Source: a virus. From it: DNA of 64,000 nucleotides. Shown in pieces: positions 4,621 through 63,133 of this stretch (positions within the stretch are counted from its first letter, which is position 1; each line of letters begins with the position of its first letter). The position numbers and the translations under genes are program-made. The stretch is from the IMG/VR virus record IMGVR_UViG_3300009838_000018, positions 5,177-69,176 of that record; one strand, given 5' to 3'. The notes under the pieces were generated by a model, which saw only the letters and a list, made by a program, of their open reading frames with translations, searched no databases and was not told the DNA's origin.

Positions 4621-5370
4621 CTAGAGGCTCCGTAAGATTTCATCAAGGTCCAACTCGCCTTCTTGGGGCTTCCTCGGGGGCTCCGGCTTGAAGTTCTTTT
4701 GCAACACCTCATCCAACTCGGCCAGGGTTGCCCGCTTCTTGGGCACTGGGGGGAGGGGCTTGGGCTTCTCCTCCTCCGAGTCCCCAAGGATGCGCTCGAA
4801 CCGAGTCTTGGCCTTGGGCGTGCTGATCTCTCCAATCGGACGGCCCCCACGACCACGCTTCCGACCCCCACCAAGGACGGGTCCCGAAGCCTGTAGCCTC
4901 TTTCTACTGAAAACGTCAGAGAGCTGACTCGGGCGGTAGAGGGTCCCAGAGGAGGAGAACCGGACCTCAGTTATGAGGGCTGCCCCATAGACTGGACCAA
5001 AGTCCCTTGGGTCCCCCCCGCCCAGGATTGCAGGGTACATGTGGGACCAGTTCTCGAAGATTCTGAGCGTGAAGTCACTCGCTACACAGAAGAACAGGCT
5101 TACTCTATGTGGGGATAGCCTCTCGGTCACCTGATAGAAGTGGTCAGCCTCAAGTGCGACTTCCTCCTCGTCTAGGGCATCCGAGGCATCCGCCTCACCC
5201 CCATAGATAGGGGTCATCTCGGCATCAACCTGTTGGGTTGACCCGAGGATGATAGCTTCCTCCACCTGAAAGAGGTGCCCAAACCCAATCACAAGACATT
5301 GACGGTTATGCCTTGGGGTCTCTTCGAGTTGGATTTCCCCCCTTTGGGAGAACGTGATGCGGGTGCCCAT
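4621..5370 (-). CDS. hypothetical protein with TRFERIL motif near the C-terminus
   Basis: 249-aa ORF; KTRFERILGDSEEE at about 4786-4806. Confidence 0.7.
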   Translation of the reverse strand: MGTRITFSQRGEIQLEETPRHNRQCLVIGFGHLFQVEEAIILGSTQQVDAEMTPIYGGEADASDALDEEEVALEADHFYQVTERLSPHRVSLFFCVASDFTLRIFENWSHMYPAILGGGDPRDFGPVYGAALITEVRFSSSGTLYRPSQLSDVFSRKRLQASGPVLGGGRKRGRGGRPIGEISTPKAKTRFERILGDSEEEKPKPLPPVPKKRATLAELDEVLQKNFKPEPPRKPQEGELDLDEILRSL

Positions 5371-5375
5371 GTTGA

Positions 5376-5663
5376 CTAGCTTCCTGGTGGCTTGAGGGGC
5401 TTGTCCTTCTCCCAGGGGAACACAACCGGAGGGGCCTTCTGGACCTTCACCTTGGGGGGCGGAGTGTCCTTGAAGGCCCGGTCGAGCTGTAGATGGTAGT
5501 ATTTCTGTTCAGCCCACTGCCTCTGTGACTTCGAGAGGTTGATGATCCGACCATTCTCCAGGTCGGTGAGCATCCCCTTGAACGCCTTCTCCTCGCTGGA
5601 AGACAACCGAGCCTTCACAGCGAGGAGAGACCTCAGGATGGTGAGGTCAGTTGGCTTGCTCAC
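5376..5663 (-). CDS. hypothetical protein
   Basis: 95 aa; start overlaps the stop of the upstream AAA gene. Confidence 0.65.
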   Translation of the reverse strand: MSKPTDLTILRSLLAVKARLSSSEEKAFKGMLTDLENGRIINLSKSQRQWAEQKYYHLQLDRAFKDTPPPKVKVQKAPPVVFPWEKDKPLKPPGS

Positions 5664-6880
5664 GAGTCATCACCCTCATCGTCGTCATCATCATCGTCGT
5701 CCTCGTCATCCCAGTCCTCATCATCATCCTCATCCTCGTTCTCGTCTTCGTCAGTCTCGTCCTCGGAGTCAGCAATCTCCTCGGCCTTGGCGAAGCGGTA
5801 GACCTCAGCAAGGGACTGGGGACCCTCGAACGTGACTTCGGTACCCATGAGGCGGTTGTAGACCTCGGCAGCCTTCTCAGCACTCAGGAGGCCAACGTGA
5901 ATCTGGCGAGACAGACGGCCAGGTCGCTTCAGGGCTGAGTCGATCTCATCGATCTTGGCGTTCGTGGTACAGACGATCCGGAGGTTCAGGGTGTGCCCCA
6001 GAATGCCGTCCGACACGTTCAGGAGAGCCGAGATGGCCGTCAGAGAGCCTTCTTGGTCTCCCCTGGGTACCAGGGCCTTGTCGGCATCCTCGATGACCAG
6101 GACGATGGGCTTGTCACTCCCAGCAAGGCTCCGGGCTCGGATGAGCATCGGAACCAGCTCGGGACCGGCTAGGTCCTCAACCATGTGGCTCGGGACCAGG
6201 ACGAAGATGGCATCCAGAACTTCGTGGATGAGGCCACGGATGAAGAAGGTCTTCCCCGTCCCAGGGTCACCGTCGATGAGAAGGAGTCGTCCGATGGGCT
6301 CTTCCCGCTGGAGTTCGGCAACAGCAAACTTGAAGTCCTCGATGACCTCCTCGTTGTAGTTGTCCTCCTCCCAGTCTTGCCCAGCCAGGCCGACCTCAGC
6401 GATCTCGATCCCGTTGGCTCCGTCCGCCAGGGAGTAGACCGGTTGACGGACGTTCTCCGGGAGCAGGTACTCACCAAGAGTCTCACCGATGGCCTTGTGG
6501 TCCACCTCGCTGGTGGTCGAGACCGCAACCGAAATCTTGTTGTCGGTACCCACCCGGACCACAATCGATCCGTTCGCCCAGACCAGCCACGTCTCGTGAG
6601 GCCCCCGACCGAAGATCGGACCACTGGCGAAGGTGGCCGAAGCCCGTACCTTGTCACACAGGGCCTTGAGGAACGCCTCGATGGCCCCTTCTTCTCCCTG
6701 ATCTTCCAGGATTCCACGACACGTTCCCGTGTAGACCGTGGCCCCGGTAGAGATGGCGTGGGTGACGAGCATACGGGTGGTAGGCCCATATTCGTCGAGG
6801 TTTCCGCACAGGGCAGGGTTCCACCAGGCGGGTTTTTCGGTTGCTGCTGGCTTTGAAGCTGTCTTCGTAGGTTTTGTCAT
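5660..6880 (-). CDS. AAA+ ATPase with poly-acidic C-terminal tail
   Basis: Walker A GDPGTGKT, Walker B LVIEDAD, SRH TTN..IDSALKRPGRL; about 30 D/E residues at the C-terminus. Confidence 0.88.
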   Translation of the reverse strand: MTKPTKTASKPAATEKPAWWNPALCGNLDEYGPTTRMLVTHAISTGATVYTGTCRGILEDQGEEGAIEAFLKALCDKVRASATFASGPIFGRGPHETWLVWANGSIVVRVGTDNKISVAVSTTSEVDHKAIGETLGEYLLPENVRQPVYSLADGANGIEIAEVGLAGQDWEEDNYNEEVIEDFKFAVAELQREEPIGRLLLIDGDPGTGKTFFIRGLIHEVLDAIFVLVPSHMVEDLAGPELVPMLIRARSLAGSDKPIVLVIEDADKALVPRGDQEGSLTAISALLNVSDGILGHTLNLRIVCTTNAKIDEIDSALKRPGRLSRQIHVGLLSAEKAAEVYNRLMGTEVTFEGPQSLAEVYRFAKAEEIADSEDETDEDENEDEDDDEDWDDEDDDDDDDDEGDDS

Positions 6881-6922
6881 GGCGTTCGCTTGAGATACAC
6901 CGGCTTGCATTGAGAACGGAGT

Positions 6923-8437
6923 TCAGATGTCGAAATCTCTCTCGAACCTCGAAAGAGGGATGAGGTTCCCCTCCTCTTCGGACCCATCTGCTGCGAAGGA
7001 CCACATGTGTTTCTTCGCACAGTGGTAGGCACGGATCTTGATCTGGCTCCGTTCCTCAACTGGTTTGTTTCGACCCCCGTACTCACCACAGTACGGGCAC
7101 TTGAGTTCTGCCATGGGTACCCCATCTTTCCCCAGGGGCTCGAAGTCCCGCTCCAAGGTCGCATACGGGGCGTCCTCCCAGTTGCTACTGATCTTGACCT
7201 CGGGCTCGAAACGTTCTACCCGTTGAAGCCGGACCATTCGTTGAACGTCATCGAGCTTGGTGACCCAGAGGGTCCTTCTGGGCCGTCGAAGGGTTCGGAT
7301 GAAGGCACCAGGGGCGACCCAGTTGGGGACATAGGCCCCGCTAGACCTGGGGACAATGGGAGTCAGTTCTGGACGATGGGGTCGAACCTCCAAGAGGGAC
7401 CCAGCAGGGCGCCAGTTCTGTTCCAGGTTGGTCATTGCAAAGCGAACGGGCCTGACCTCACCCTCCAAGGTCAAGGTCATGGCCCCGGTTAGAGGGTCAA
7501 GGCCCAACACTTGGTAGCTTTGGTTGTCTCTTCGCTGAACGATGTGAGATCCCACTGACAGCCAAGGTGGTGTTGGAGTCTCCAGTGGGCGGTACCAGGA
7601 CGCCACCTGTTGAATGTTGAAGGCTCGAACCCTGCCCCCAAGCTGAATAGGGCTCGTATCCGACCGTTCGATGTCACGAATGTGAACCTGCCCGTTGGAG
7701 ACCCCTGTGATGATCCCTCCTTGGTCACCTATGGTCGAAGCCAACCTGGCTCCGGGTCGCATCCAGCTTGGTGGTTCGGCCCTGACCTGCCTCAAGGTCA
7801 CGAAGTAGTGAGGGGTCAACCCAGTAGAGGTGGGGAGAACTCCGAACCGAGTTGGGGTCTCCGTCCTGGTCCGGTCGAGGGAGGTGGTGACTGATTCCAC
7901 TCGGAACTCTACCGTCTCTCCGTTCTCCTCCACTAGCATCCCATTGCGAAGAACTTCGACCCTCTGACCGGTCATCACCTGGAAGGGCATCGGGACGTTG
8001 TTGATCTCGATGATCGGACCCGTGGGGTGAGCCACCTGATGTTCGGTCACGCCGTCCATGGGTAGGGACACCCGAACCATCTCTGGCGGGTTCGGGGGGA
8101 AGGGGTCTTCCCCTACCGCAATGTCCCTTCTGGGGGGCATCGTTCCGACATACTCGGGGGGCCAGGAGACGTAAACGTTGCCTTGCCCAAAGCCGAACTG
8201 GTCCTCCCCAACAATGGTGAAGTCGTTACGCCTGATCTCTGGAAGCGAAATCCAGTCCCTCTCAAAGTTGAGCAAGGGGATCGAAACCACCTGGTCGTTG
8301 TTCACCCGGAGGTGTACCTCATCTGAGCCTATGAAGACCACATAGGCACGGGAGGCAGCCGCAACCTCCGTAGCACTTGGGTCACGGGGGCGGAGGTACA
8401 GTATCTCACCTATCTGAAGCCAGTTTGGAGCGGGCAC
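6923..8437 (-). CDS. multi-repeat protein (four PxW-x-x-G modules, zinc ribbon) with C-terminal SRFER tag
   Basis: APNWLQIG, PPSWMRPG, PPWLSVG, VPNWVAPG repeats; CPYC..YHC; ends SRFERDFDI. Confidence 0.8.
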   Translation of the reverse strand: MPAPNWLQIGEILYLRPRDPSATEVAAASRAYVVFIGSDEVHLRVNNDQVVSIPLLNFERDWISLPEIRRNDFTIVGEDQFGFGQGNVYVSWPPEYVGTMPPRRDIAVGEDPFPPNPPEMVRVSLPMDGVTEHQVAHPTGPIIEINNVPMPFQVMTGQRVEVLRNGMLVEENGETVEFRVESVTTSLDRTRTETPTRFGVLPTSTGLTPHYFVTLRQVRAEPPSWMRPGARLASTIGDQGGIITGVSNGQVHIRDIERSDTSPIQLGGRVRAFNIQQVASWYRPLETPTPPWLSVGSHIVQRRDNQSYQVLGLDPLTGAMTLTLEGEVRPVRFAMTNLEQNWRPAGSLLEVRPHRPELTPIVPRSSGAYVPNWVAPGAFIRTLRRPRRTLWVTKLDDVQRMVRLQRVERFEPEVKISSNWEDAPYATLERDFEPLGKDGVPMAELKCPYCGEYGGRNKPVEERSQIKIRAYHCAKKHMWSFAADGSEEEGNLIPLSRFERDFDI

Positions 8438-8508
8438 AGTCTCACCTACACCAAAAATGTTGAAAGCTCACCGTGACCTAGCTATGGTTCGGTGTTTAGG
8501 TAGCCTGG

Positions 8509-8886
8509 ATGGACGTACAGGTACTTTCCTTTCAGAAGCCGAAGCAGTTCATTCGGGGGTTCCCCCTCGAAAAGCGAAGGCACTTCAAGGTGATAGAGCT
8601 TCCGGTAGGCTCTCAGATCCTATCAGCGGAAGATCAGTCCCACGAAGGAACCTTGATGCTCTGGGTCATGCTCCCTGCTACCAAGGACTTGCCCCTGGAG
8701 CGAAGAACCCTCCTGGTTACCTACGAGGGGGAGGAGTTCGAGATTTCGGAGGAAGAGATCCCCGGCATAAACTCTGTGATTCCGAACGTCTACCACATCG
8801 GGATGTGGGTGGACCGGACCATGGACGATGGGGACCTCGTCTCGGTCACCGGTCATGTCCTAGAAGTCCTTGGGGATGAAGACTGA
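8509..8886 (+). CDS. hypothetical protein
   Basis: 125-aa ORF of a small phage-type protein (LPVGSQILS..LMLWVML..GHVLE). Confidence 0.7.
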   Translation: MDVQVLSFQKPKQFIRGFPLEKRRHFKVIELPVGSQILSAEDQSHEGTLMLWVMLPATKDLPLERRTLLVTYEGEEFEISEEEIPGINSVIPNVYHIGMWVDRTMDDGDLVSVTGHVLEVLGDED

Positions 8887-8914
8887 CCCCGCCATCTCGG
8901 TGTAATTCTGTTTG

Positions 8915-9442
8915 ATGAGCGACTCTTCCCGAAGCCGATTCGACCGCACCCTCGACATCGACGATCCATCAGAAGTAGCAGTGTCTCGGTTTGAGCACAT
9001 CAACCGGGAAGCTGGCCTGGTGGATGCCAAGGTTCTGGCTGGAGCGACTCTTGAAGCTAGAACCGAGGAAAAACGTATCTGGATTGGGCTTCGTCCGGAC
9101 AACCTCTGTGGACGGTACCCGTGTTTCCAGACGGGGTTGATGTCCCTCGGGGAGGCCCTTGAGGGGGACCCGCTGGAAGAGGTTGAGGGGTCGTGCCCTG
9201 GGGCAGATCCTATCGACCAGGCCCTTCTTGCTGGAGCCACCCTTACCGTGGAGCGGCTGGGTGATGCTCTCATCGCCACCTGGGTGCGTTCCCTGCCTCT
9301 CAGGACCTTTCAGTACGAGGGCAAGGAGCACAGGGTCTACCGGAAGGGGACCCGCAAGGCGAAGGGCCTGAGGGTCCTTGAGGCGGCCTTGGCGGCCTTG
9401 GCGGCAGAGGAGAAGGTCTCCGAAGGGTCGATGCTCAGCTAG
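8915..9442 (+). CDS. hypothetical protein with N-terminal SRFDR motif
   Basis: MSDSSRSRFDRTLDIDD; GGTGTA 10 nt upstream. Confidence 0.7.
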   Translation: MSDSSRSRFDRTLDIDDPSEVAVSRFEHINREAGLVDAKVLAGATLEARTEEKRIWIGLRPDNLCGRYPCFQTGLMSLGEALEGDPLEEVEGSCPGADPIDQALLAGATLTVERLGDALIATWVRSLPLRTFQYEGKEHRVYRKGTRKAKGLRVLEAALAALAAEEKVSEGSMLS

Positions 9443-9884
9443 GTAGGTTGATCAGCAAGGTGTGAATCGAGGTCTGAAGGTCGAAGTCCAGGGCATTCTC
9501 TCGAACGAACAGCTCTGAAACCCCAGAGACCACGAAGATAGCCCAGTCCTTCACCCTCGGACGCATCACATAGATCGGGCGTATCCAGTTCGGTATGGTC
9601 CGGTCTGGTGCTTCTCCAATGACCCGACACCCAACCCTACACGGGTCGTAGCGCCAGATGTCATCCTTGGATACCACCATCTTGAGAATCTGGTCCCGCA
9701 TCTTCGGGGGGAGCACTCCAAGCCTGGCAAAGGGCTCCATCTCCCCGGATTGGAAGGAGAAATAGGCGTAGTGACCACCCTCTTCCTCCTCCGATATGAT
9801 GTAACCTTCAAGATCGAGCACCCGAGTCAGTGGGTAGGACCCGGACTGACCTCTTTGGCTGATCGGAGCTGGTTCCAGTAGCAT
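9435..9884 (-). CDS. hypothetical protein
   Basis: 149 aa; GGAGGT RBS upstream. Confidence 0.65.
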   Translation of the reverse strand: MLLEPAPISQRGQSGSYPLTRVLDLEGYIISEEEEGGHYAYFSFQSGEMEPFARLGVLPPKMRDQILKMVVSKDDIWRYDPCRVGCRVIGEAPDRTIPNWIRPIYVMRPRVKDWAIFVVSGVSELFVRENALDFDLQTSIHTLLINLPS

Positions 9885-9896
9885 AGTTACCTCCCC

Positions 9897-10598
9897 TCAC
9901 TTGCGCTTCACCTCATCCAAGATTGATTGAATCAACTTGAACCGCCTACGGCTAGCCTCCCTCAGTTGGGACAGGGGTCGGATGCTGACCGGCTTTTCTA
10001 GCCACTCGGTTAGACTGCCCATCGGTTCTTCACCGAAGCTGAGCAGATGGGGGTCTAGGGGAAGCAGTTCCCTCACGAGGGCCTTGCTGTGAGTCACCAG
10101 GACTGAGCCAACAAGGGGCTCAGGAGCCGACTCAATGAAGCTCCGAATTTCAGCCCCGGTGGAAGCAGCCCAGTCGTCCGAGAGACCGATGTCTGGCTCG
10201 TCCCAGAAGATGACGTGCCGGGTCTCCCGGCCCTTGCTGGTTCTGATGGCCCCCAGGACCGTCTCAGAAGAGTTCTCGCCCGTGCTCTGCCACTCCTCTG
10301 AGCCGTAGACGAAAGCCAGAGCTGGGTTGTAGGCGCAATTTCTGCGCCCCTCCATCGAGAGATGGATGCACTCGATCTTGGTCTTGGAACAGACCCCCTG
10401 GATGATGCGTCGAAAGAAGCTCTTCCCAGAGGCATTGCCACCCACAGCCACGACCAGCTTCCCCTTCCCTGGAACGAAGTTCGCAGAGATGGGCACTTCC
10501 CCGTTGTCGTTCGGGTGGAAATAGTCCAGCGTCAAGCACTCCTGAATCAAGCTCAGGGTATCATTGACCCGGAAATCGCTCTTCTTTGCCCTGGGCAT
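9897..10598 (-). CDS. stand-alone ABC-like P-loop ATPase
   Basis: Walker A GGNASGKS, Walker B/D-loop FWDEPDIGLS, H-loop LVTHS. Confidence 0.8.
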   Translation of the reverse strand: MPRAKKSDFRVNDTLSLIQECLTLDYFHPNDNGEVPISANFVPGKGKLVVAVGGNASGKSFFRRIIQGVCSKTKIECIHLSMEGRRNCAYNPALAFVYGSEEWQSTGENSSETVLGAIRTSKGRETRHVIFWDEPDIGLSDDWAASTGAEIRSFIESAPEPLVGSVLVTHSKALVRELLPLDPHLLSFGEEPMGSLTEWLEKPVSIRPLSQLREASRRRFKLIQSILDEVKRK

Positions 10599-10662
10599 AC
10601 CTGGACCTCTCTCCCGTACAACGTCCAGGTACACCAACCTTTCAACTAGGCTCGTCGATTTT

Positions 10663-10983
10663 TCACGGGACCCACTGAGGGTTGCGGGCGGAACTCGGCA
10701 TTGCGCTGGGGGCGGAAGACGCTTTGGGTGTTGAGCTGGATGCCTTCGGGGTGGCCGAGTAGAAGTCGTCCCCTACATAGCAGCACATCCCGGCGGGGCA
10801 ACCAGTCCCAACAGGCCCACCACAGACCTCGTTGTTCCAACAGCAGGACAACGGCTTAAGGTTGCAGGGGTGGGCTCGTGTGCCACACGGGTATTCTGGC
10901 GACACGGGGTTATCGATCTTGTTGCAGTCCTTGCATCCGGAGAAGGTCGCAAGGGCGGCAATCAGCAGCAATGTAGTTCGCAT
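10663..10983 (-). CDS. Cys-rich putative lipoprotein
   Basis: Signal MRTTLLLIAALATFSG-C (lipobox); 10 Cys; TPKASS repeats. Confidence 0.7.
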   Translation of the reverse strand: MRTTLLLIAALATFSGCKDCNKIDNPVSPEYPCGTRAHPCNLKPLSCCWNNEVCGGPVGTGCPAGMCCYVGDDFYSATPKASSSTPKASSAPSAMPSSARNPQWVP

Positions 10984-10997
10984 GAGGTCTCCTTCCC

Positions 10998-11872
10998 CTA
11001 GACCTCTTCATAGAGGATTCTTTCAAATCTGCTCCGACGGATGGTCACTTCGATAACCTCTGGAGGCGGCTGAAGCACTGGACCAGACCTGTCAATCAGG
11101 TTGGACCAGACCTGTCAATCAGGTCGAACCTTCGTTGCCGGATGTCATCCACTCGAATCGTCGGGTTCGAGATGATTTCAAACTCGGGTACCGTGACCCG
11201 TTGAGCCTGGATGGCTCTCGGGTTGACCACCCCTATTCCGATGTTCTCGGTCACCGTCCACCCAAGGGGGAGTCGGTGGGGCTCATCAGCCCCCATGACC
11301 GTCAACTCAGACCGTAGTGGGGTTGCAGCCATCGAGGCTTCGAGGTCTTGAAAGATTTGCCGGTCGAAGCTCTCCTGGATCTCTCTCACCGTCGCCTCAA
11401 TCATGTCAACGCTGAGGTTGGGCTGGGGGGCTTCTGGGTTGGCGAAAGTTGAGGGGGCCTCGATGCTCATCTGACTTGGGTCGAAGATCCCAATGAGCCC
11501 TGACGGGGGACTGGAAGACACGACGAACCCAACAGGGTTGTCTCCGTTCATGGTCAGTCCACCAGAGGTGGGATCGATTCCCACAGGGGTCCCAGGGACG
11601 ATTCTGGAGACCTGCATCGGACCCCAAATCGAGGGGATGAGTCCCTGTCGCATGACCGTCCCCTTGGAGTTCAAGAGGTAGCTGACCTGAGGGTTCTCCG
11701 GACCTAGGTCACGAAACTGGACCTCAACCCCCATCAAGTTGGGAACGGTCGGGTCCTCTCGAATCTGGAGGGATGCCAGGTTCCGGTCCCCTTGCAGAAG
11801 ACGGATCTCTTCCTGGAAGATTCGGTGCTCGTTCGAGTCTCGGGTTGGGTACCTGAGTGTCCAGGTGGGCAT
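10998..11872 (-). pseudogene. mosaic of major-capsid-like fragments, frameshifted near the 3' end by a 23-bp duplication
   Basis: The ORF now stops at 11096. Removing one copy of TGGACCAGACCTGTCAATCAGGT restores ...GPVLQPPPEVIEVTIRRSRFERILYEEV with stop at 10998-11000. Confidence 0.7.
11079..11124. repeat. perfect 23-bp tandem duplication
   Basis: TGGACCAGACCTGTCAATCAGGT at 11079-11101 and 11102-11124. Confidence 0.95.
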
Positions 11873-11903
11873 GGGGCTACCTACCCCGGTGTACTCAAGG
11901 GCT

Positions 11904-12290
11904 ATGCCACGGAAGAAAGACCCATGGTTGGCTCCCCTGGATGAGTCCTGGATCGAGGTGGGAAAGAAGATAATCCCACTGCCTCCAAATCTGGCTGGGA
12001 GCTATTCGTTCAGCTTTGGAGACTCCCCTAGTTGGAGCTGTAGCAATCTCCCTGCGAACCCGACTCCCCACGATATGCCGGTGTTCGTGATCTCAAGGAT
12101 TGATGTGACGGGGAACGGTACCCGGATGGTCCACTTCCACCTGGTGGCAGACCCTCGTCACGGGTCTGCTTGGTGGTCGAAGGACATCAAGTCGAAGTTT
12201 CGTCCGGCCCCTAGTCCGAAGAGAGCGCCTCGCCCGAAGAAGCCGAAGCCAACACCCTTGAGTCGGTTTGATCGTGAGGACGTAGTTTGA
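11904..12290 (+). CDS. hypothetical protein (W-x-x-x-G module) with C-terminal SRFDR tag
   Basis: ATG 11904 lies 10 nt after GGTGTA; ends KPTPLSRFDREDVV. Confidence 0.75.
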   Translation: MPRKKDPWLAPLDESWIEVGKKIIPLPPNLAGSYSFSFGDSPSWSCSNLPANPTPHDMPVFVISRIDVTGNGTRMVHFHLVADPRHGSAWWSKDIKSKFRPAPSPKRAPRPKKPKPTPLSRFDREDVV

Positions 12291-12522
12291 TGAAGACTGG
12301 GGTGTTCGGTCCCACCCAGGCCCCGATGGTGTTGAACTCGAAGAACTCAAGAGCAGCCTCGTAGTCCATCCCCTGCCCAACCAGAATCTCCAAGCACTTG
12401 TCGTAGTCGTAGGAGGCCACAGGGGGCTGGCAGGCTCGGTAGCAGATCCCTAGGTAGGCCCTCTCGAACCCATCGGCTAGGAGGGCATTCGGATTCTCAT
12501 CTTCGAGTTCTTCAATGCTCAT
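12211..12522 (-). CDS. conserved phage hypothetical protein
   Basis: LLADGFERAYLG..YDYDKCLEIL..ALEFFEFNTIGAWVGPNTPVF pattern common in phages. Confidence 0.7.
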   Translation of the reverse strand: MSIEELEDENPNALLADGFERAYLGICYRACQPPVASYDYDKCLEILVGQGMDYEAALEFFEFNTIGAWVGPNTPVFIKLRPHDQTDSRVLASASSGEALSSD

Positions 12523-12896
12523 GACAGGATCGGCCTCAGTGCTTGGGCCACCACAATGCAGCCCTCTCGTTGGTTGGCATCCACCATACAGGCATCCAGC
12601 CCTCCCGTGAACCCGAAGAGCTGAATGACCTCGTTGACCACCACTGGGTTCGGGAACCTGTTCCGGTCAGGTACCGAAATGGAAAGGTGCCGATAGATCA
12701 TCTGGTCTATCTGGCTCTCAGTAAGAGAGAACACGACTCGGAAGTCCCCGATGTTCATGACATAGTTCGGGTTGTCGCCCGGAGCCTTCACCTTTGGACC
12801 TGGGCGGTAGATGTTCTCCGGCTTCGAGGCAAAGTCCAGTACCTCTGTCGCCCTGGACTTGGCTTCGTTGTCAATGATGAGGACTCTGAGGCTCAT
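12519..12896 (-). CDS. hypothetical protein
   Basis: 125 aa; GGTGTA 9 nt upstream. Confidence 0.7.
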   Translation of the reverse strand: MSLRVLIIDNEAKSRATEVLDFASKPENIYRPGPKVKAPGDNPNYVMNIGDFRVVFSLTESQIDQMIYRHLSISVPDRNRFPNPVVVNEVIQLFGFTGGLDACMVDANQREGCIVVAQALRPILS

Positions 12897-12904
12897 GCCC
12901 CCAT

Positions 12905-14116
12905 CTACACCACGGGTTCCCTGGAGAAGCGATCTGCGGTGATGGTGATCTCTGGCATGATGATGGCTTGGGGTCCTGGGTCGGGGACGCCTGGCTGACG
13001 GAAGACTCGCAAGACCCCCTGGTGGCTTGCCAGAGGGGCCAAGGCGGGGTCACTGAGCAGAGCGATGAGGTCCATGTCCTCACCGTCTACACGGCAGCTA
13101 CGGGCCACCAGGACGCAAACCTGAGAGTAGTCCGAGTGGTGCATGTCATGGGCGGTTCCTCGACCTTGGATGAGCCGGAGGTACTGCCCGTTCGGCCCCT
13201 TGGCGAGGGATGCCACAGCTTCCCCTTTGATTCCTTGGTAAGAGGCCCCCTCGAAGTGCCACCCGTAGTTCATGGCCTTCCCGGTCTTCACCAGGAGGTC
13301 GTTGTCGATGACCCAGTGCTTGCCAACCGTACCCAGCAGCCCGGTGGGGTTTCCCAAGCTGACCAGGTCGGCATCGATCTTCCCCGAGTGCTCGATCATG
13401 GCAGCCGTGGATGACGTGATCTGCCTGGGGTGTGGGTTGAGCTTCACCGTCCGCTGGATCCACATGAGGTCGGCCAGCTTCGGGGTGAGCAGAAGGCACC
13501 CGGTCATGTCGGCAATCTTCTGCTGGGTCTCTGCCGTGACGTTGACCCGTACCCCTTCGATCTTCAGAGCATCGGAGAAGACTTGAAACTCAGCCGTATG
13601 CTCGTTGTAGGTTGAGGTTACGGTCGAGAAGCTGGCCTCGTAGTGCCCTTGCGAGACATAGTCGAGGATAGCATTCTCACGATCCGGACCAGCGTTCTCG
13701 GGAAGTTGAAGGGTCATGCTTCGACGGAGCATGACTGCTTTATGCTCGGCTCCCGAGGTCTCCAAGAGGTCGTGATTGACCACTCGGCTGAACCGAGTAG
13801 TCGGGTTCCCGGTGATGAGGCACCAAAGGTCTTCAATCTGGACTACTTTGCCCAGCGTGACTTTGTTCTTGATGGGGTTGAGGAATCCGACTGGAGTAGT
13901 CTCAGTAGAGCGAACTTCTAGCTGCCCGAACTTCAAAGGTAGGAGCTGGGGTACGGTCAGCACCTTCCAGGGGTCGTTCCCAGGGTTCCCCGTGTACATC
14001 CTGAGTTCGAGAAAGTCCTTCGGGTTGATCTCCACATAATCGGGGTCAAACCCCTCGATTCTGGACATCGTCGCTAGGACGGTGGCGATCTTCTTGCCAA
14101 GGGTCTCAGTCATCAT
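12905..14116 (-). CDS. hypothetical protein, possibly an enzyme (conserved-looking GKHW, NYGWH, H..HSDYSQ motifs)
   Basis: Start ATG 14116 overlaps the upstream stop; ends DRFSREPVV. Confidence 0.7.
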   Translation of the reverse strand: MMTETLGKKIATVLATMSRIEGFDPDYVEINPKDFLELRMYTGNPGNDPWKVLTVPQLLPLKFGQLEVRSTETTPVGFLNPIKNKVTLGKVVQIEDLWCLITGNPTTRFSRVVNHDLLETSGAEHKAVMLRRSMTLQLPENAGPDRENAILDYVSQGHYEASFSTVTSTYNEHTAEFQVFSDALKIEGVRVNVTAETQQKIADMTGCLLLTPKLADLMWIQRTVKLNPHPRQITSSTAAMIEHSGKIDADLVSLGNPTGLLGTVGKHWVIDNDLLVKTGKAMNYGWHFEGASYQGIKGEAVASLAKGPNGQYLRLIQGRGTAHDMHHSDYSQVCVLVARSCRVDGEDMDLIALLSDPALAPLASHQGVLRVFRQPGVPDPGPQAIIMPEITITADRFSREPVV

Positions 14117-14918
14117 CGAAGAGGATCCTGGAGAACCGGCTCTCGGGCTCCTTCGGCTCATCGCAAGGAGCCCATTCCCTTGCGAATGACGTGATGATCT
14201 GCCTTCGAGGTGGGTCGAACGACCGCCACACCTGGAACTCGACGTTGAGCATCTCGACCTTGATGATCCTGGCAAACTCCCCATTCCGGGTGACCCACTG
14301 ATCGAGCTTCAGCCACTCTGGGCGGACCCAGGGCTCGGTGGAGGTGGAGCACCCCATTGAAACCTCTGGGATGAGTCCAGACCTCAGGGTTGCCATGGCA
14401 CCTGGGTCGGGGTCACGGTCGTAGACTGGAAGGGCACCCTCTGGAATCTGGTCAACGAGGAACGTTCGTCTGGCTACCGAGCTGTAATCTATCCTTGCTC
14501 GAAGCGGGGCTATCATTGAGGCCGCAAGACGGGACCGCCCCTCAGAGCTGTTGATGAACTGGGAGATGATGCTCTCCCGAGCCTCTGGGGAGAGCATGTC
14601 CCCGTTCCGGTTCGGGGTGTCAGGGGGTCCTAGGAGGTTCTGGAACCCAACAACCGTTCTTTCAGTGAAGGGCCTTCGTCGCTCGTAGAGGTCATGGAGG
14701 GCATAGGCTTCTGGACCCTCCCGGTCGTTCGCCATCCTGACGTTGAGTCGGTAGTAGCGGGGGTTGGTCGAGCCAGGGTTGGGGTCAGGGGGGTCGAGGA
14801 TGAGAGTTGTACTGAGTACAAACTCGTCCTGCTCGAACCGAGCCCGGTCTACTCGGGCCTGGATCCGGTCGTCTACCGTGTTCTCATATCGAAGTGTCCA
14901 CAGGGGACCGGGTGGCAT
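14106..14918 (-). CDS. mosaic protein containing a major-capsid-like N-terminal fragment, a PxW module and an SRFSR tag
   Basis: IISQFINSSEGRSRLAASMIAPLRARIDYSSVARRTFLVDQIPEGALPVYDRDPD; ends ESRFSRILFDDD. Confidence 0.72.
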   Translation of the reverse strand: MPPGPLWTLRYENTVDDRIQARVDRARFEQDEFVLSTTLILDPPDPNPGSTNPRYYRLNVRMANDREGPEAYALHDLYERRRPFTERTVVGFQNLLGPPDTPNRNGDMLSPEARESIISQFINSSEGRSRLAASMIAPLRARIDYSSVARRTFLVDQIPEGALPVYDRDPDPGAMATLRSGLIPEVSMGCSTSTEPWVRPEWLKLDQWVTRNGEFARIIKVEMLNVEFQVWRSFDPPRRQIITSFAREWAPCDEPKEPESRFSRILFDDD

Positions 14919-14920
14919 GG

Positions 14921-15382
14921 CTAGGTCCTCATGAAGCGGAGTCGATACTCCCCGTCCGGCCATTGGACGATATGCGTCCACTCGATGACCGGTCGCACGA
15001 ACACCTTAGAGGGGTCACCCAGACTGAAGTAGATGACCGCCACGTCCTCTCTTGAGCCCTGTAGGAGGAGAGCGGTTCTCTCTACCGTGTAAAGCCCACC
15101 CTTGAAGTGCCGATATGCCCCTGGGGATACCTCCGAGTAGTTGTCCCGCCTCAGAAGAAAACGAAGCAGTTTCTCTGCCTGAAGGGGGTCACCACGGTCG
15201 ATGGGTGGGTACCGTTTCAGGAAGTTGTGGATCAGGCCACCAGGGGACTGACTGGAAGTGATGGCCTCTTCAGCCCTGTCTTGAGCAGCCAACACATCCC
15301 CACCCTGAAGCTGTGACTCGGGGACCCCGAGTGCATAGGCAGCCAGGACCCTGTAGGGGTCAATGAGGAATGAGGTGGACAT
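14921..15382 (-). CDS. DUF1653-like domain protein
   Basis: PGAYRHFKGGLYTV..VIYFSL..VFVRP..W; GGTGTA 10 nt upstream. Confidence 0.75.
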   Translation of the reverse strand: MSTSFLIDPYRVLAAYALGVPESQLQGGDVLAAQDRAEEAITSSQSPGGLIHNFLKRYPPIDRGDPLQAEKLLRFLLRRDNYSEVSPGAYRHFKGGLYTVERTALLLQGSREDVAVIYFSLGDPSKVFVRPVIEWTHIVQWPDGEYRLRFMRT

Positions 15383-15475
15383 AGCACCCGAGTACACCAC
15401 CTATTCTTTCGATGGCAAGTTGCTTGGTTGAAAGATCGAAACCCCAGACGTTGTACTCCTTAGAGGAGATTGAAG

Positions 15476-15943
15476 ATGCCTACGGACCCGATTGCAAATG
15501 TTGTTCTTGCCACCAAGGTAGCTCAGAGATTCGCTGCTGACGTGGGTGGGTCTGAGGACTTCATCAAGATGGTCGAGTCCCAGCTCAAGCTGGATGGCCG
15601 TCAGGTCAGGTTCAACAACAAGTCCAGCCTGGGTGGCACCAGCTACTCGATGGTCTTCATCAACTTCATCAACCTCCCCTCAGGCGTTGGTGGGGCCGGT
15701 GGTGGAGCTGAGGCCGAGAACAACCGGATGATGTTCATGGTGGATGGCTTCGGCAAGGAAGATCCCCATGCACCCCCTCCCACTGGCAAGGTCAAGATCG
15801 AGATGAGGGTCTCAGCCCTCCCCCGTGAGTACAAGCTCCGGGCGAAGACTGGCACCCCCTCTCAGGTGGCGAAGTACCTGGCCGACTTTATCAACAAGGT
15901 GGTCAAGGAAGTGGAACCCCACTTCACGCACACCGGTCGCTAG
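15476..15943 (+). CDS. hypothetical protein with N-terminal KVAQRF motif
   Basis: AGAGGAG RBS; VVLATKVAQRFAAD. Confidence 0.75.
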   Translation: MPTDPIANVVLATKVAQRFAADVGGSEDFIKMVESQLKLDGRQVRFNNKSSLGGTSYSMVFINFINLPSGVGGAGGGAEAENNRMMFMVDGFGKEDPHAPPPTGKVKIEMRVSALPREYKLRAKTGTPSQVAKYLADFINKVVKEVEPHFTHTGR

Positions 15944-16260
15944 AACCTGATCTCGGGTTCAACCACAACCCGAGCCTTTTTCTCCACCTTCAAGATCACG
16001 TAGGGCCTACGCTTCTGCCGTAGCCGGACCTCAACGTCCAAAGCACGGATGAACTCGTTTAGGACTGTTGGGTCGTCGGTCACCCAATGCTCGAAGGTGT
16101 CATAGGTGTCCGTGTGCTCTGGGTACCCATGGCCTGGGTTGGTCCGGGAGCGCTCGTCACCAGGGACATAGACGCTGGTCGTGTCGTAGATGATGACCGT
16201 GAAGTGGGGTCCCTCGGGGACATCACTCGGCCCCTTCACTCGAATCATGTCCTTCCTCAT
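15940..16260 (-). CDS. hypothetical protein
   Basis: 106-aa ORF in a coupled gene string. Confidence 0.6.
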   Translation of the reverse strand: MRKDMIRVKGPSDVPEGPHFTVIIYDTTSVYVPGDERSRTNPGHGYPEHTDTYDTFEHWVTDDPTVLNEFIRALDVEVRLRQKRRPYVILKVEKKARVVVEPEIRF

Positions 16261-16556
16261 CCGTTCCTACCTCTCCGGCGTTGGTTTCTCGCCAGGTCCG
16301 TGTGGACTTTTCCGTGTGGGTCTTGCTTGGCGATGAAAGCAACCGTCTTGCGGAACCTCTCGTTTGAGAGAAGGGCATCGACGGTCGAATACTCGGACTC
16401 CAGCTCTTTGTTGCTGAACTGAGCGTGAATGGCGTCGTGGCAGTCACGACAGATAGGTAGCGTGGCAGTTCCGGTACCGCCCCTGGTCCTTGGGATCAGG
16501 TGGTGGTCGCTCTTGCGGACGAGGATCCGTTCACAGAGAGGGCAGGTTGCTTCCAT
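16257..16556 (-). CDS. HNH endonuclease
   Basis: CPLC..SDHHLIPRTRGG..LPICRDCHDAIH. Confidence 0.85.
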   Translation of the reverse strand: MEATCPLCERILVRKSDHHLIPRTRGGTGTATLPICRDCHDAIHAQFSNKELESEYSTVDALLSNERFRKTVAFIAKQDPHGKVHTDLARNQRRRGRNG

Positions 16557-16583
16557 CGACCAAGGGGTACACCGGGAAGGCGT

Positions 16584-16805
16584 CTACTTCTTGGCGATAA
16601 CCTTGCCATTCGGGAGCTTCACAGCACCAAAACCGCTGGCAAAGGCAGCGGTGACAGCTTCCTCACATGTCTTGAACCCATGGCTGTAGTTCCAGTGCGG
16701 AACGTAGGAGCCGTAGTTCCAAGGTCGGGGGCTGCCCTTGCTGAATAGGATGATAGCTACCTCACTGGCTTGTTTGGCCTTTGGATCAGGTTGGGGCTTC
16801 TTCAT
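16584..16805 (-). CDS. hypothetical protein
   Basis: 73 aa, translationally coupled. Confidence 0.55.
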   Translation of the reverse strand: MKKPQPDPKAKQASEVAIILFSKGSPRPWNYGSYVPHWNYSHGFKTCEEAVTAAFASGFGAVKLPNGKVIAKK

Positions 16806-17206
16806 TCGGTCGGGTCATCCTCCCCGAGAACCCGGTCGGCCCGTGTTGGCAGCTCTGGAGCCTTCTTCTTCCTTTCGGTCTTGGGCTTGTCCGGGAGGGT
16901 GATGTTCCCGGAGTTCCAGGAGCAATTTGCCGGACTTGAGACCATCCTGAAGAAGTAGCTGAGTTTCCGCTCACTCAGGATCTCCTCCAGGTCCGAGTTG
17001 GTCTTGGAGACCTCTTGCTCGTTCTCAGGGGTCTCCAGGAGAAGGGAAAGGGTCAGGGAGCTTGGGTTGCCCCCCTTGGGCTTGGAGAACAGCTCTTTGG
17101 AGCTGGCGAGGGGACCAACCTTGTAACCTCTCCGGGCGAACCCAGAGGTCACAATGTCAACGGCCCCCTCGGTGAGGAGAACAACCCAAGCGTAGTGTGT
17201 TGCCAA
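16802..17206 (-). CDS. hypothetical protein with degenerate C-terminal tag
   Basis: Ends PELPTRADRVLGEDDPTE. Confidence 0.65.
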   Translation of the reverse strand: MATHYAWVVLLTEGAVDIVTSGFARRGYKVGPLASSKELFSKPKGGNPSSLTLSLLLETPENEQEVSKTNSDLEEILSERKLSYFFRMVSSPANCSWNSGNITLPDKPKTERKKKAPELPTRADRVLGEDDPTE

Positions 17207-20634: not shown

Positions 20635-21156
20635 ATGCACCAGATCCTCTTCTACAGCCCGAAAGAGAGCCCTTATGGGTGCTTCTCGAACTTCTCCCGA
20701 CACAAGGTTCAGGTATACGGCCAAACCTGGGAGACCTCGGAGCACCCCTTCCAGGCGATGAAGTATCACCCTCATCGGCCGGACCTCGTACAGATGGTCC
20801 TCAAGGCGGTGGGACCGATGCGGGCAGCCGAGATAGGACGGGACCGTGGGAATCCTATCCGTCCAGACTGGGACAGCCTCGTCCCGAATCCAAGTCCCCT
20901 TGTAGTGGATGACGGACGAGGTCCTGCCCCTGTCATAGAGCGGGTCAAGGACCAGATCATGTACGAGGTTGTCTGGGCCAAGTTCACCCAGCACAACGAT
21001 CTACAGAGCATCCTCCTGAGCACAGGGGCCAGCCCGATCATCGAGAACGCCATCCATGACCCCTACTGGGGGTGGGGGTCCTCGCAAACTGGGGTGAACC
21101 GTCTCGGGAAGATCCTGATGGCGGTTCGTTCCGAGTTGCAGGTTGGCCTCAGATGA
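20635..21156 (+). CDS. NADAR (YbiA-like) family protein
   Basis: FSNFS..WETSEHPFQAMK..KFTQH..L..LLSTG..IIENA..DPYWG..GVNRLGKILMAVR. Confidence 0.9.
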   Translation: MHQILFYSPKESPYGCFSNFSRHKVQVYGQTWETSEHPFQAMKYHPHRPDLVQMVLKAVGPMRAAEIGRDRGNPIRPDWDSLVPNPSPLVVDDGRGPAPVIERVKDQIMYEVVWAKFTQHNDLQSILLSTGASPIIENAIHDPYWGWGSSQTGVNRLGKILMAVRSELQVGLR

Positions 21157-21541
21157 CAGGTCTCCTGTCAAACCTGCTCGGGGGTCCCTCGATGACCTCA
21201 CACCCGATGTCCCGAAAGGCAGCGGTGATGAGAGAGGTCGTCTCGATGGGCCGGGAGATAATCCGGGTCTCACGCCCGTTGGTGATGGAGGCGTTGGAAG
21301 CGGCCGGGAGCACATGGACCCGAGGAGGCTCACGTCTCCAAGACTCGGGTACCCGGAGTTCGACGCCCTTCCCTTCGGCAAGTGACTCAACCGCCAGCAA
21401 GAACAAGCCGGGAGCCGAGTCCACTGAAACAACGATGGGTCCCTCGTTGTTCCAAGCGGCCTGGAACTTCTGGATCTCTGCCGCCCCGAGGGTCAGCGGG
21501 TTCTTGGGACGGTTCTTCGGATTGAAGAGAGGGGATGCCAC
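21149..21541 (-). CDS. hypothetical protein with C-terminal SRFDR tag
   Basis: GTG start 10 nt after GGTGTA; ends GPPSRFDRRPVI. Confidence 0.7.
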   Translation of the reverse strand: MASPLFNPKNRPKNPLTLGAAEIQKFQAAWNNEGPIVVSVDSAPGLFLLAVESLAEGKGVELRVPESWRREPPRVHVLPAASNASITNGRETRIISRPIETTSLITAAFRDIGCEVIEGPPSRFDRRPVI

Positions 21542-21629
21542 GATAAGATCCTACACCTGTGAGGAACCCGAGGGCTGGGCTTCTGATTCCGGTGTAACAA
21601 CAGAGGAACCCGAACGGAGTCAAACGATT

Positions 21630-22938: not shown

Positions 22939-23898
22939 ATGATTCAGACTCTTCATCGACCCGACGGGACACAGACCCAGGTCCACCTTGGCGGGTGGAA
23001 GAAGCAGTACATCGACACCCGAGACGAACCCTACCGCTTGAAGTTGAACGGTAGCTTCCTCGGAGCCCTTCCCGGATCCGTTGACCGGCGTCCGTTCTGC
23101 TCTCCGGTTGAGGACCAGGGGAACCTCGGGTCATGCACGGCCCAGATGTTTGCCTCCCTTATCGAGGCCAACGAGCTTCGCCAGAACACCAAGCTGGCTC
23201 AGATCGGTGGAATGTTCGGAGCTGCCACGGCAACCGTGTCCGTGTCGAATGTGGCGGTTGCCTCGGACGGGACCATCACCTTCACCACCTCGGTCAAGCC
23301 CCCAGTTCCGGCTCCTACCCCAACTCCAGCACCAGCCCCGAACGTGACCTTGGTACACGCCAGCAGGCTCTTCGAGTATTATGCGACTCGTCGAATCATG
23401 GGTACCACGGGCTACGACTCTGGGGCCACCATCCGAGACACGATCAAGGCTGGGGTGGTCTACGGGGTCGTGGATGAAGTCAAGTGGCCGTACAACATCG
23501 CCCAGTTCAAGACCAACCCACCCTCATCGGTCTGGACGGCAGCCGCATCCAAGAAGGTCACTTCGTACCACGCTGTCTCGAATGGTGACATCGAGACGAT
23601 GAAGTCCGTCCTCTACTCGGGCTACCTGGTGGGCTTCGGGTTCCGGGTCTTTGAGTACATGTTGAGCTTGGACATGGCTCAGAAGGGCATTCTGACCCGA
23701 CCAGGGAGAAACGAGGTCGAGGTCGGGGGTCATGCGGTTACCCTTGTAGGCTATGACAACTCCAAGCAAGCCTTCCTGGTTCGGAACTCCTGGGGGGCCA
23801 ACTGGGGGATCGGTGGCTACTACTGGATGGCCTACGACTACGTGGGGGACCCAAACCTCTCCAGTGACTTCTGGGTCGTGAAGAGCACCCCCCTATGA
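22939..23898 (+). CDS. C1A papain-like cysteine peptidase
   Basis: DQGNLGSCTA (Gln/Cys), GGHAVTLVGYD (His), VRNSWG (Asn). Confidence 0.92.
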   Translation: MIQTLHRPDGTQTQVHLGGWKKQYIDTRDEPYRLKLNGSFLGALPGSVDRRPFCSPVEDQGNLGSCTAQMFASLIEANELRQNTKLAQIGGMFGAATATVSVSNVAVASDGTITFTTSVKPPVPAPTPTPAPAPNVTLVHASRLFEYYATRRIMGTTGYDSGATIRDTIKAGVVYGVVDEVKWPYNIAQFKTNPPSSVWTAAASKKVTSYHAVSNGDIETMKSVLYSGYLVGFGFRVFEYMLSLDMAQKGILTRPGRNEVEVGGHAVTLVGYDNSKQAFLVRNSWGANWGIGGYYWMAYDYVGDPNLSSDFWVVKSTPL

Positions 23899-24131
23899 AC
23901 CCGAACATTCCTGAGAAGTGCAAGGGGTGCGGGGCACCCCTTCTTCTGGAGAACCTCTTCACGGATGATGGGTGCCCCTGCAACACTCCTCGGGGGATCA
24001 ATTTCAAGCCGAAGCCCTGCAAGCTCTGCCAGGTTGACAACTGTGTGAAGCCAGGGCACCGGCTCTACGAGCTGTTCCAGACCCCAGGGCTTCCCGTTCC
24101 TGACAGGTTCGAGAGGGAAGACCCAGTCTAG
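23895..24131 (+). CDS. Cys-rich small protein with C-terminal RFER tag
   Basis: CKGC, CPC, CKLC..C; ends PDRFEREDPV. Confidence 0.7.
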   Translation: MNPNIPEKCKGCGAPLLLENLFTDDGCPCNTPRGINFKPKPCKLCQVDNCVKPGHRLYELFQTPGLPVPDRFEREDPV

Positions 24132-35276: not shown

Positions 35277-35657
35277 CTACACCAGGTCGTCACCCTCAAT
35301 CCGCTCAAATCGTGACCGTCCGGTTGGGAGGTCCTCATCGTGCGGAGTTTCAAGGAGGAGCCTCGGGTCAAACTTGCCTTGTTGGCTCAGAATCTCTGCT
35401 ATGTGGGCTCTCGAACGCTGACCGAGGAAGAGGAGCCGGAGAAGAGCCCAGTGTGAGTTGGGACCCTTCTCCGTGAACTTGTGGAAGTCTTCGATGTTGA
35501 CCCACCAAATCTCTCGGTAACACTGTTGGCAGGCGAACCCTATGGCCCTTGTCACTGGGTCGTCTGCGCACAGGACGATGTGTCCTTCGTTCTCCTCCAC
35601 ATGCAACCGGATGGCCCGGAGCATGTGGAAGACATCCGTGTAGCGAGTGCTACCCAT
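35277..35657 (-). CDS. hypothetical protein with C-terminal SRFER tag
   Basis: CQQC; ends PTGRSRFERIEGDDLV. Confidence 0.7.
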   Translation of the reverse strand: MGSTRYTDVFHMLRAIRLHVEENEGHIVLCADDPVTRAIGFACQQCYREIWWVNIEDFHKFTEKGPNSHWALLRLLFLGQRSRAHIAEILSQQGKFDPRLLLETPHDEDLPTGRSRFERIEGDDLV

Positions 35658-58677: not shown

Positions 58678-58943
58678 CAGAGAATGTCCTCCCTCTCGAA
58701 CCTAGAAGGGGGCTCTTCTGGCCCGGCCTCCTTGATGACAAGGTTGACGCTTGAGGTGCCCTGAATGGGGGCGTTGACCTCGATGATGACAGGGTCGCTG
58801 TCCTGCATCCGGCGGAATATCTTCTCCTCTTCGTTCACCCGACCCAGCTCCTTGAGCCTACGGATCTTCCGGGTGACCCACAGGTACATGAGCCCGGCGA
58901 TGGTCCAGCTCACCACTGGGGCGATGAAGAGGGTCCAGCTCAT
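58677..58943 (-). CDS. membrane-anchored protein with C-terminal SRFER tag
   Basis: N-terminal TM helix; ends EEPPSRFEREDIL. Confidence 0.75.
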   Translation of the reverse strand: MSWTLFIAPVVSWTIAGLMYLWVTRKIRRLKELGRVNEEEKIFRRMQDSDPVIIEVNAPIQGTSSVNLVIKEAGPEEPPSRFEREDIL

Positions 58944-62737: not shown

Positions 62738-63133
62738 ATGCCAGTACGAAAGTCCTCGGAGAACACCCTGGGGAAGATCCTGGAAGGACTTCCCTCAGCC
62801 GCAACCAGGCACCTCATCATCCTTCAGTGTGGCAAGTATGCCCTTGCTGAAGCGGCCAAGGCGGAGGATGCCAACCAGCCAGAGGCAGCTAGCGGGGCCA
62901 ACGATGCCGCCATGGCTGTCCTCCTTCAACTTGGGGAGGACCCAGTAGAGCTGAAGAGGTTCGGTCGTCTTGAGGGGGTCAGGCTCAAGACGAGCCTCTT
63001 CAAACCACTCAAGGGGTTGGACCTTGGCCCTAGGGAGCAGATGGTCTATCAGGCGGCCTTGGACACGGCGGAAGTCCAGATGCGAAGGCTCTACGACTCC
63101 AACTACAGGTACCCAGAGGTCTTCTGTGCATGA
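62738..63133 (+). CDS. hypothetical protein
   Basis: GGTGTA 9 nt upstream. Confidence 0.65.
   Translation: MPVRKSSENTLGKILEGLPSAATRHLIILQCGKYALAEAAKAEDANQPEAASGANDAAMAVLLQLGEDPVELKRFGRLEGVRLKTSLFKPLKGLDLGPREQMVYQAALDTAEVQMRRLYDSNYRYPEVFCA

Follow-up and report, generated by a model that had tools for sequence, protein, structure and literature searches.

Why would a huge phage carry, outside its head module, a gene made from pieces of a major capsid protein (MCP) that do not stand in their native order? The question is raised by ORF2, an open reading frame (ORF) of 258 aa on the minus strand, at 11096-11872 of a 64,000-nt window (the whole stretch of DNA that was analysed, bases 5177-69176 of the 78.9-kb IMG/VR virus record IMGVR_UViG_3300009838_000018; positions below are those of the window). 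The ORF is clean and its protein was found identical on 13 contigs from several samples. We show here that ORF2 belongs to a conserved accessory gene family of huge phages and that it represents a strain-specific allele with a truncated C-terminus; its product is not a shell subunit. With regard to function, the overall best explanation, to which we assign a probability of roughly 0.4, is an accessory family of capsid-piece proteins docking on the capsid protein or the procapsid.

The source is a huge wastewater phage. The record was rated ∼16% complete by CheckV, which implies a genome size of several hundred kb; the GC content is 58%, and the same DNA was found in anaerobic-digester and wastewater metagenomes. 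A search of IMG/VR gave no close relatives.

Capsid-derived segments of ORF2

We denote four segments by their order in the canonical capsid protein: A (E-loop return strand and a short helix), B (spine helix), C (a strand motif of the A domain) and D (the C-terminal P-domain hairpin). In ORF2 the order is C-B-D-A (Table 1). In tblastn searches of cultured phages only major head proteins match, two pieces each, the matches being to Bacillus phage G (gp27), Tunturiibacter phage Tunturi_5 and an uncultured 485-kb phage. The gp27 and Tunturi_5 head proteins were both aligned to the window. Residues 240-276 of gp27 (C-terminal strands, segment D) match positions 11320-11210, and residues 76-117 (segment A) match positions 11233-11108, directly after D and in the same frame. 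The PHROGs family phrog_2522, ‘major head protein’, likewise matches ORF2 in two stretches (E 3e-10); on the 79-kb record, profile positions 272-312 (D) are found immediately upstream of positions 119-152 (A) in one frame.

Pairwise BLASTP was run against P0027, a canonical reference protein. Significant alignments were obtained for D (1e-10, aa185-223 versus 244-282), A (5e-8, aa222-255 versus 85-118) and C (4e-4, aa67-93 versus 200-227), and B gave no significant one (3.7, aa144-179 versus 98-140). The segments are 39-50% identical to P0027 and keep the invariant motifs of the canonical protein. With a hidden Markov model (HMM) built locally from 19 canonical proteins, the E-values are 5e-13 for D (aa184-222), 8e-12 for A (aa221-255) and 0.3 for C (aa68-95). 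Segment A, with the motif VPEFEI..SNP..RRFDLIDR, is joined directly to D, the whole D-to-A junction (..NPRA.. and then ..RV.VPEFEI.SNP..RRFDLIDR) being in one frame. The C motif, IWG..VSRIVP, is shared with the canonical A-domain strands, and a weak match of the canonical HMM to C (independent E-value 5) is seen at the same relative place in the related protein P0044.

Segment B is linked to the capsid family only indirectly, through relatives. Its helix, predicted by AlphaFold2 (AF2) as 29 residues at aa155-183 with a predicted local distance difference test (pLDDT) score of ∼90, shares 10 of 18 residues, by our own count, with the first helix (B helix) of the homolog P0002; the B region of P0002 is recognised by the canonical HMM (3e-6) as the spine helix and the region after it. 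The preliminary description of this locus gave the boundaries of the ORF and of the four segments correctly, the residue numbers converting to the right coordinates. It held that all four segments resemble a capsid protein family and that they are arranged C-B-D-A against A-B-C-D. Judged by sequence comparison, the resemblance and the non-collinear order are confirmed for C, D and A, where they are statistically sound; for B the resemblance appears only via relatives, and its position is plausible.

ORF2 lacks the N-arm, the first strand of the E-loop and most of the A domain. Pfam gave no family for ORF2 at E up to 10, DUF1884 (PF08967) included. Residues 1-75 are predicted with high confidence (Table 1) as a beta-alpha-beta-beta-alpha-beta domain; Foldseek (PDB, BFVD) and an Atlas search returned weak ABM/ACT-like matches only, all to this domain, which indicates a predicted generic ferredoxin-like, often dimeric fold. 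The D-A part is predicted at pLDDT 52-68 with no strands, and the minimal homolog P0039 as helices only, with no sheet (predicted template modelling score 0.24). Foldseek found no capsid or encapsulin match. An HK97 fold is thus not predicted by AF2 for the capsid-derived half, a result whose weight is limited by the low confidence; the latter would come either from shallow alignments or from strands that require a partner to fold.

In a wastewater metatranscriptome run (X8) a 160-nt contig exactly matches ORF2 at 11301-11442. It is a weak hint of transcription, DNA carry-over being possible.

The family, its partner gene and its terminal tag

An exhaustive HMMER search of 1.84 billion representatives gave 191 clusters (50% identity) at E ≤1e-3, a count that includes canonical capsid proteins; the clusters were mapped onto gp27 of phage G and onto an ORF2-family profile. 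Canonical collinear capsid proteins form 32 clusters. The direct D-to-A junction, in one contiguous stretch, recurs in at least 14 clusters other than that of ORF2 (P0035, P0036, P0038-P0042, P0044, P0045, P0051, P0054, P0066, P0069 and P0079), and ∼30 clusters keep at least the last D strand together with A. The consensus is ..G.GV.NPRA.., a linker of 2-8 residues and then ..RV.VPEFEI.SNPT....IR.RRFDLIDR. Since the junction is present on 13 contigs, in other strains and in other phages, it is unlikely to be an artefact. Around it the architectures vary: M-B-short middle-D-A-tail in P0039, the same elements with C added in front in P0041, P0038 and P0044, and B'-D-A-B in P0035, P0036 and P0040. 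P0047 is a full-length homolog of ORF2 (31% identity), and P0002 (locus L006) is without the N-terminal domain. Other clusters have the N-arm only, the N-arm with A or the N-arm with D.

The preliminary description took ORF2 for a singular mosaic. This view had to be given up: ORF2 is one member of a conserved family, which is marked by the fixed D-A junction, by an N-terminal domain held in common, by ORF1 as partner gene and by a terminal tag. We are highly confident of the anatomy of the ORF2-type proteins, namely an N-terminal domain, a disordered linker, rearranged capsid elements and a C-terminal tag of the form RF-x-R-I-L plus acidic residues. No Pfam family, informative database name or paper (in open-access text) describing these proteins was found, and the literature on conflict systems of jumbo phages and on bacterial sensors of phage proteomes yielded nothing on capsid-fragment proteins. 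The family is a large, unannotated and previously undescribed kind of HK97-derived protein.

ORF1 lies on the same strand as ORF2 (Table 1). It is matched by phrog_2522 as well; the match was to ORF 14106-14981, which the gene-caller start shortens to 14106-14918. Residues 108-185 of ORF1 match the N-arm helix, the first strand and E-loop strand 1 of the capsid protein, and these are just the elements missing from ORF2. More than 15 full-length homologs of ORF1 are known to us from the search, with 33-83% identity. Both ORF1 and ORF2 begin MP..WTLRY, the ORF2-family profile detects ORF1-family members via the N-terminal region, and the N-terminal domains of the two families align in hhalign with a probability of 96.5% (E 9e-10). 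An hhalign alignment that placed segment C on the N-arm helix of ORF1 was rejected, as the match of C to the canonical A-domain motif is much better.

The ORF1/ORF2 pair is syntenic in three related phages (L014 and L016/L017). L014 has the end of an ORF1 homolog, homologs, by size and order, of the 403-aa and 125-aa genes, and P0047; at L016/L017 the ORF1 homolog P0005 has an ORF2 homolog 1.2 kb downstream. The pairing is kept across phages at 31-56% identity.

Such complementary pieces, with the N-arm and first E-loop strand in ORF1 and B, D and A in ORF2, raise the question of whether the two proteins together make the real shell protein, the more so as the 79-kb record is without a canonical capsid gene. 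We consider this very improbable: most of the A domain is missing from both proteins, the record covers only ∼16% of the genome, the context is non-structural, P0002 has no ORF1 within 10 kb, and in one complete genome (see below) capsid fragments and a canonical gene occur together. A split intein or intron across ORF1...ORF2 was rejected because the order of the pieces does not suit splicing and neither a Hint nor an intron signal was seen; an Rfam scan of 5000-17000 for introns splitting a capsid gene gave nothing relevant. In a predicted complex of ORF1 aa100-195 with ORF2 aa150-258, computed without alignments, both chains are poorly folded.

Pfam gave no families for ORF1 and its 403-aa and 504-aa neighbours. 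Modules of ∼55 aa with the pattern P.W..G...W.P are seen several times in the 504-aa ORF (6923-8437, minus strand) and once at the end of ORF1 (14106-14400, minus strand); they look like small beta domains. A weak tblastn match places residues 224-258 of gp27 inside the 504-aa ORF (8069-8185, minus strand, E 3e-4); it was not confirmed by profiles and we treat it as unproven.

A C-terminal peptide, (P/S)xRF(D/E/S)R with acidic and hydrophobic residues after it, is shared by ∼12 ORFs of the 79-kb record that are otherwise unrelated (Table 1). A regular expression for this tag gives 13 matches versus ∼5 expected by chance, the real matches being far more specific than the pattern. Pfam assigned no families to eight tagged proteins. 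In the ORF1 family most of 17 aligned members end with (F/W/L)xR(L/I/M)(L/M) and then acidic residues, and at least 10 relatives of ORF2 end with RF(E/S/T)RI(L/I). Among canonical capsid proteins of the clade, 22 of 148 begin with M.R(Y/F).I.LGK.PPP, which is followed by a Lys/Pro-rich stretch (in P0031, P0067, P0091, P0068 and others), and a few end in R(Y/F)..L, a C-terminus resembling the accessory-protein tag. The head maturation (prohead) protease of Tunturi_5 ends in ASFDRLLRK (L002:1-234), which is loosely tag-like. These similarities in sequence hint at, and do not prove, a relation of the tag to head assembly.

Terminal capsid-loading signals are exemplified by the HK97 protease C-terminus and the cargo-loading peptides of encapsulins. 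The T4 capsid targeting sequence is a short peptide that loads proteins into capsids, and a similar targeting role was proposed for the C-terminus of the SPN3US protease (PMC7411985). Like these peptides, the RFERIL-type tag is a short terminal sequence common to unrelated proteins; its sequence, however, is unlike that of any known signal, and it is lost in the allele of the window.

The loss is caused by an exact 23-bp tandem duplication, which shifts the frame and brings in a stop codon (Table 1). With one repeat copy ORF2 would run 27 residues further, ending ..RRSRFERILYEEV, and the restored tail is clearly homologous to the tails of P0047 and P0037. The duplication thus removes a C-terminal ‘RFERIL’ tag kept in relatives; in the truncated allele 255 residues are still in frame. 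Contigs from other runs were aligned to the region. Contigs of two other studies lack the 23 bases at 11079; this is so in runs X4 (a strain ∼99% identical) and X5 (∼91%), where the tag is in frame. It follows that the full-length allele occurs in nature, while only the digester lineage has the duplication; this polymorphism separates digester runs of 2016, where the second copy is present, from wastewater contigs of 2021 and 2025, where it is absent.

Purifying selection, to which the preliminary description had looked as a check, is indicated by the same contigs. X4 differs in eight codons, six synonymous and two not, and X5 in 22 codons of the N-terminal domain, 14 synonymous and eight not, so the differences between strains are mostly synonymous.

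A frameshift that deletes a conserved tail would fit a functionless, decaying relic of a capsid-gene duplication or of homing-endonuclease traffic; moreover, the capsid genes of these phages often adjoin mobile endonucleases, and they occur both in tandem and with in-frame duplications at this same LIDR motif. Such decay is nevertheless improbable for an old and diverse family with a fixed junction and conserved motifs, with mostly synonymous variation between strains and with an ORF1 pairing that is syntenic across phages at 31-56% identity; the window allele itself, with 255 residues in frame, was recovered in identical form from several samples.

The family probably originated when tandem capsid paralogs fused in frame and lost the N-arm together with most of the A domain. 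Two canonical capsid paralogs do stand in tandem at L048. A deletion that keeps the frame, starts near the end of one copy and reaches into the next, taking out the N-arm, would give D-A-B...; the B'-D-A-B subtype (P0035, P0036, P0040) fits a fusion across two copies, and C in front would require one more step. We also observed that the first of the L048 paralogs (L048:3959-5791) carries an in-frame LIDRAH-LIDRAH duplication at RRF.LIDR, the same motif at which the 23-bp duplication of ORF2 is located.

Table 1. Coordinates of ORF2, its parts, the duplication, ORF1 and tagged ORFs in the window
Feature	Position	Strand	Details
ORF2, frameshift-truncated allele	11096-11872	-	258 aa; identical protein on 13 contigs
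N-terminal domain, aa1-75, ferredoxin-like beta-alpha-beta-beta-alpha-beta (predicted)	11648-11872	-	AF2 pLDDT 94-98
Segment C, aa67-93, capsid A-domain strand motif (IWG...VSRIVP)	11594-11674	-	BLASTP versus P0027 4e-4
Linker, aa95-150, predicted disordered	11423-11590	-	AF2 pLDDT 35-52
Segment B helix, aa155-183, spine-helix-like	11324-11410	-	AF2 pLDDT ∼90; resembles P0002 B helix
Segment D, aa184-222, capsid C-terminal P-domain hairpin	11207-11323	-	HMM 5e-13, BLASTP 1e-10
Segment A, aa221-255, E-loop return strand and short helix	11108-11212	-	HMM 8e-12, BLASTP 5e-8
Exact 23-bp tandem duplication (11079-11101, 11102-11124)	11079-11124		Frameshift; stop at 11096-11098
Former 3′ gene end, now out of frame	10998-11078	-	Single-copy protein would end ...RRSRFERILYEEV
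ORF1	14106-14918	-	270 aa; N-terminal domain, capsid N-arm helix, first strand, E-loop strand 1, PxW domain, tag SRFSRILFDDD
Tagged ORFs, examples	6923-8437, 11904-12290, 12905-14116, 14106-14918, 21152-21550		Range of tagged ORFs 6923-63456
Tagged ORFs, further examples	23868-24128, 35280-35663, 58680-58949, 58940-59719, 63034-63456		

Genomic setting and resident capsid genes

The neighbours of ORF2 encode an AAA ATPase, a DUF1653 protein, a NADAR protein, an Acb1-like 2H phosphoesterase and NUMOD3 endonucleases; farther out are a methyltransferase-Mrr fusion, a CCA-adding enzyme, an ATP-grasp protein, a papain-like protease and J-domain proteins. In the vicinity of P0002 we found an AcrVA2-like gene, ferritin, a J-domain protein and a UvrD helicase. 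By comparison with phage G, Tunturi_5 and L018, neither ORF2 nor P0002 is in a head module.

We ran the ORF2-family profile on five complete genomes of huge phages that have this capsid type. In four of the five the canonical capsid gene is the only capsid-like match. The fifth (G009, 446.5 kb) has its canonical capsid gene at ∼234 kb and, 180 kb away at ∼415.8 kb, two adjacent fragment genes (L106:4814-5515) encoding a 67-aa protein (middle region) and a 163-aa protein (N-arm-A-B, a truncated capsid protein). Both begin with a 13-residue N-terminal leader, MKHP..I.SDG.L. The 163-aa protein is only 39% identical to the capsid protein of its own genome, as against 49% to P0057, the capsid protein of another lineage; its relatives form a family of truncated proteins (P0118, P0123, P0128, P0153, P0156). 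Capsid-fragment genes are thus accessory, sporadic and old. This coexistence bears out the earlier statement that ORF2 does not encode a capsid subunit, as do its out-of-order segments, its missing parts, the lack of a predicted HK97 fold and the non-structural neighbours.

The same setting is compatible with a weapon against other phages, in which the capsid pieces would act as dominant negatives, inserting into or capping the assembling capsomers of a co-infecting rival that has a related capsid protein, while the phage's own shell is spared. Truncated coat proteins are commonly dominant negative. The sporadic presence among complete genomes, the many architectures (N only, N+A, N+D, D-A, B-D-A) typical of fast-evolving conflict genes, the accessory-island neighbours (Acb1-like, NADAR, AcrVA2-like) and the closer similarity of the G009 fragment to the capsid protein of another lineage would all suit this role. 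We still regard it as unlikely: the motifs kept are invariant throughout the family, which makes self-sparing hard, and the tag on many unrelated proteins is left unexplained.

An immune antagonist or decoy, as suggested in the preliminary description, would use conserved capsid epitopes to occupy host capsid sensors without activating them. The segments kept are the most conserved, hard-to-mutate capsid parts, such as a sensor would target, and some neighbours are known or suspected anti-defence genes (the Acb1-like 2H phosphoesterase and NADAR here, the AcrVA2-like gene beside P0002). The sensors CapRel and Lit, on the other hand, become active on binding capsid protein, so additional epitopes should set them off, unless binding of the fragment fails to activate them; nor does a decoy explain the N-terminal domain, the ORF1 partner or the tag. 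We judge this role to be quite unlikely. An assembly modulator, the other suggestion made there, would be a possible alternative.

Proposed function and comparison with known systems

The explanation that we favour, though only weakly, is docking on the capsid. The pieces retained in ORF2 are the most conserved P-domain and E-loop elements and are not predicted to fold alone; on this ground we propose that ORF2 binds the phage capsid protein or the procapsid lattice by mimicry (strand complementation). That the fragments keep motifs invariant in the canonical capsid protein counts in favour of this mode of action, which as such we put forward only tentatively. ORF1, which carries the N-arm piece complementary to ORF2 and shares the N-terminal domain that probably dimerises, may join the binding, and the C-terminal tag would serve as a targeting peptide. 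ORF2 would then be a non-essential accessory protein, capsid-associated or packaged.

Several observations weigh against the docking explanation. The neighbourhoods are accessory and anti-defence-like and not head modules. No canonical capsid gene is present in the 79-kb record (∼16% of the genome), and among the best 120 of 567 capsid proteins from a profile search none comes from the 407,078-bp contig of the phage, on which both ORF1 and ORF2 lie. The identities of the G009 fragment (39% to its own capsid protein versus 49% to another) argue against co-evolution of the fragment with the shell of its own genome. Among huge phages the family occurs sporadically, a pattern that suits conflict genes no less than virion components. 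The low AF2 confidence could merely reflect shallow alignments. The likeness of the tag to the protease tail is weak, and the tag is not enriched beside the canonical capsid genes of 80 other phages (which have much lower GC). Finally, binding to any capsid protein is something we infer from sequence.

A wider formulation appears doubtful to us: a diverse superfamily, in huge phages with phage G-type capsids, whose members would line up single secondary-structure elements of the coat protein in non-native orders after a common small domain, would be deployed as mimics in conflicts, either as non-activating antagonists of host capsid sensors or as dominant-negative poisons of rival shells, and would be routed by the tag to one destination along with a dozen other proteins.

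The closest known protein is the gp27-type HK97 MCP of phage G (phrog_2522; PF25209/PF05065 on relatives), to which C, D, A and probably B are homologous. ORF2 differs from it in that the order is scrambled, D is fused to A, the fold is partial and the gene is not in a head module; ORF2 also adds an unrelated N-terminal domain, a linker and a C-terminal tag. Accessory proteins that redirect the assembly of helper capsids are exemplified by Ccm and CpmB of SaPI and by Sid of P4; Ccm is a full-length HK97 homolog, while CpmB and Sid are unrelated to the coat protein. The likeness lies in an accessory protein acting on the capsid lattice by resembling or binding the coat protein, as proposed for ORF2; unlike the three, ORF2 is a scrambled fragment with the N-terminal domain described above.

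A part of the HK97 fold can stand alone. The Family 4 ‘A-domain’ encapsulins consist of the A domain alone, in native order, and are found in enzyme operons of archaea and Bacteroidetes (PMC8346489). ORF2, by contrast, is a phage protein and retains mostly elements of the P-domain and the E-loop, which do not stand in native order. The order of elements can change too: the capsid protein of BPP-1/Epsilon15 has a non-circularly permuted HK97 topology, in which two elements of the A domain have changed places in a protein that is complete and forms a shell, the N-element being described as not permutable (PMC3863775). ORF2, unlike BPP-1, breaks the N-element between A and B and has an incomplete fold.

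Few phage proteins are as constrained as the capsid proteins, which are also a main target of bacterial sensors. Proteins with a fixed non-native order of capsid elements are natural probes of which parts of the HK97 fold suffice for binding to the lattice or to a partner. The large family, its ORF1 partner and the widely shared tag make a testable system, in which the alleles with and without the tag in ∼99% identical strains provide a natural pair for experiment. That the ORF2 family is a new functional class is in our estimation less likely than not, though the chance is a real one; the findings suggest that a new class of accessory or conflict proteins directed at capsids may exist.

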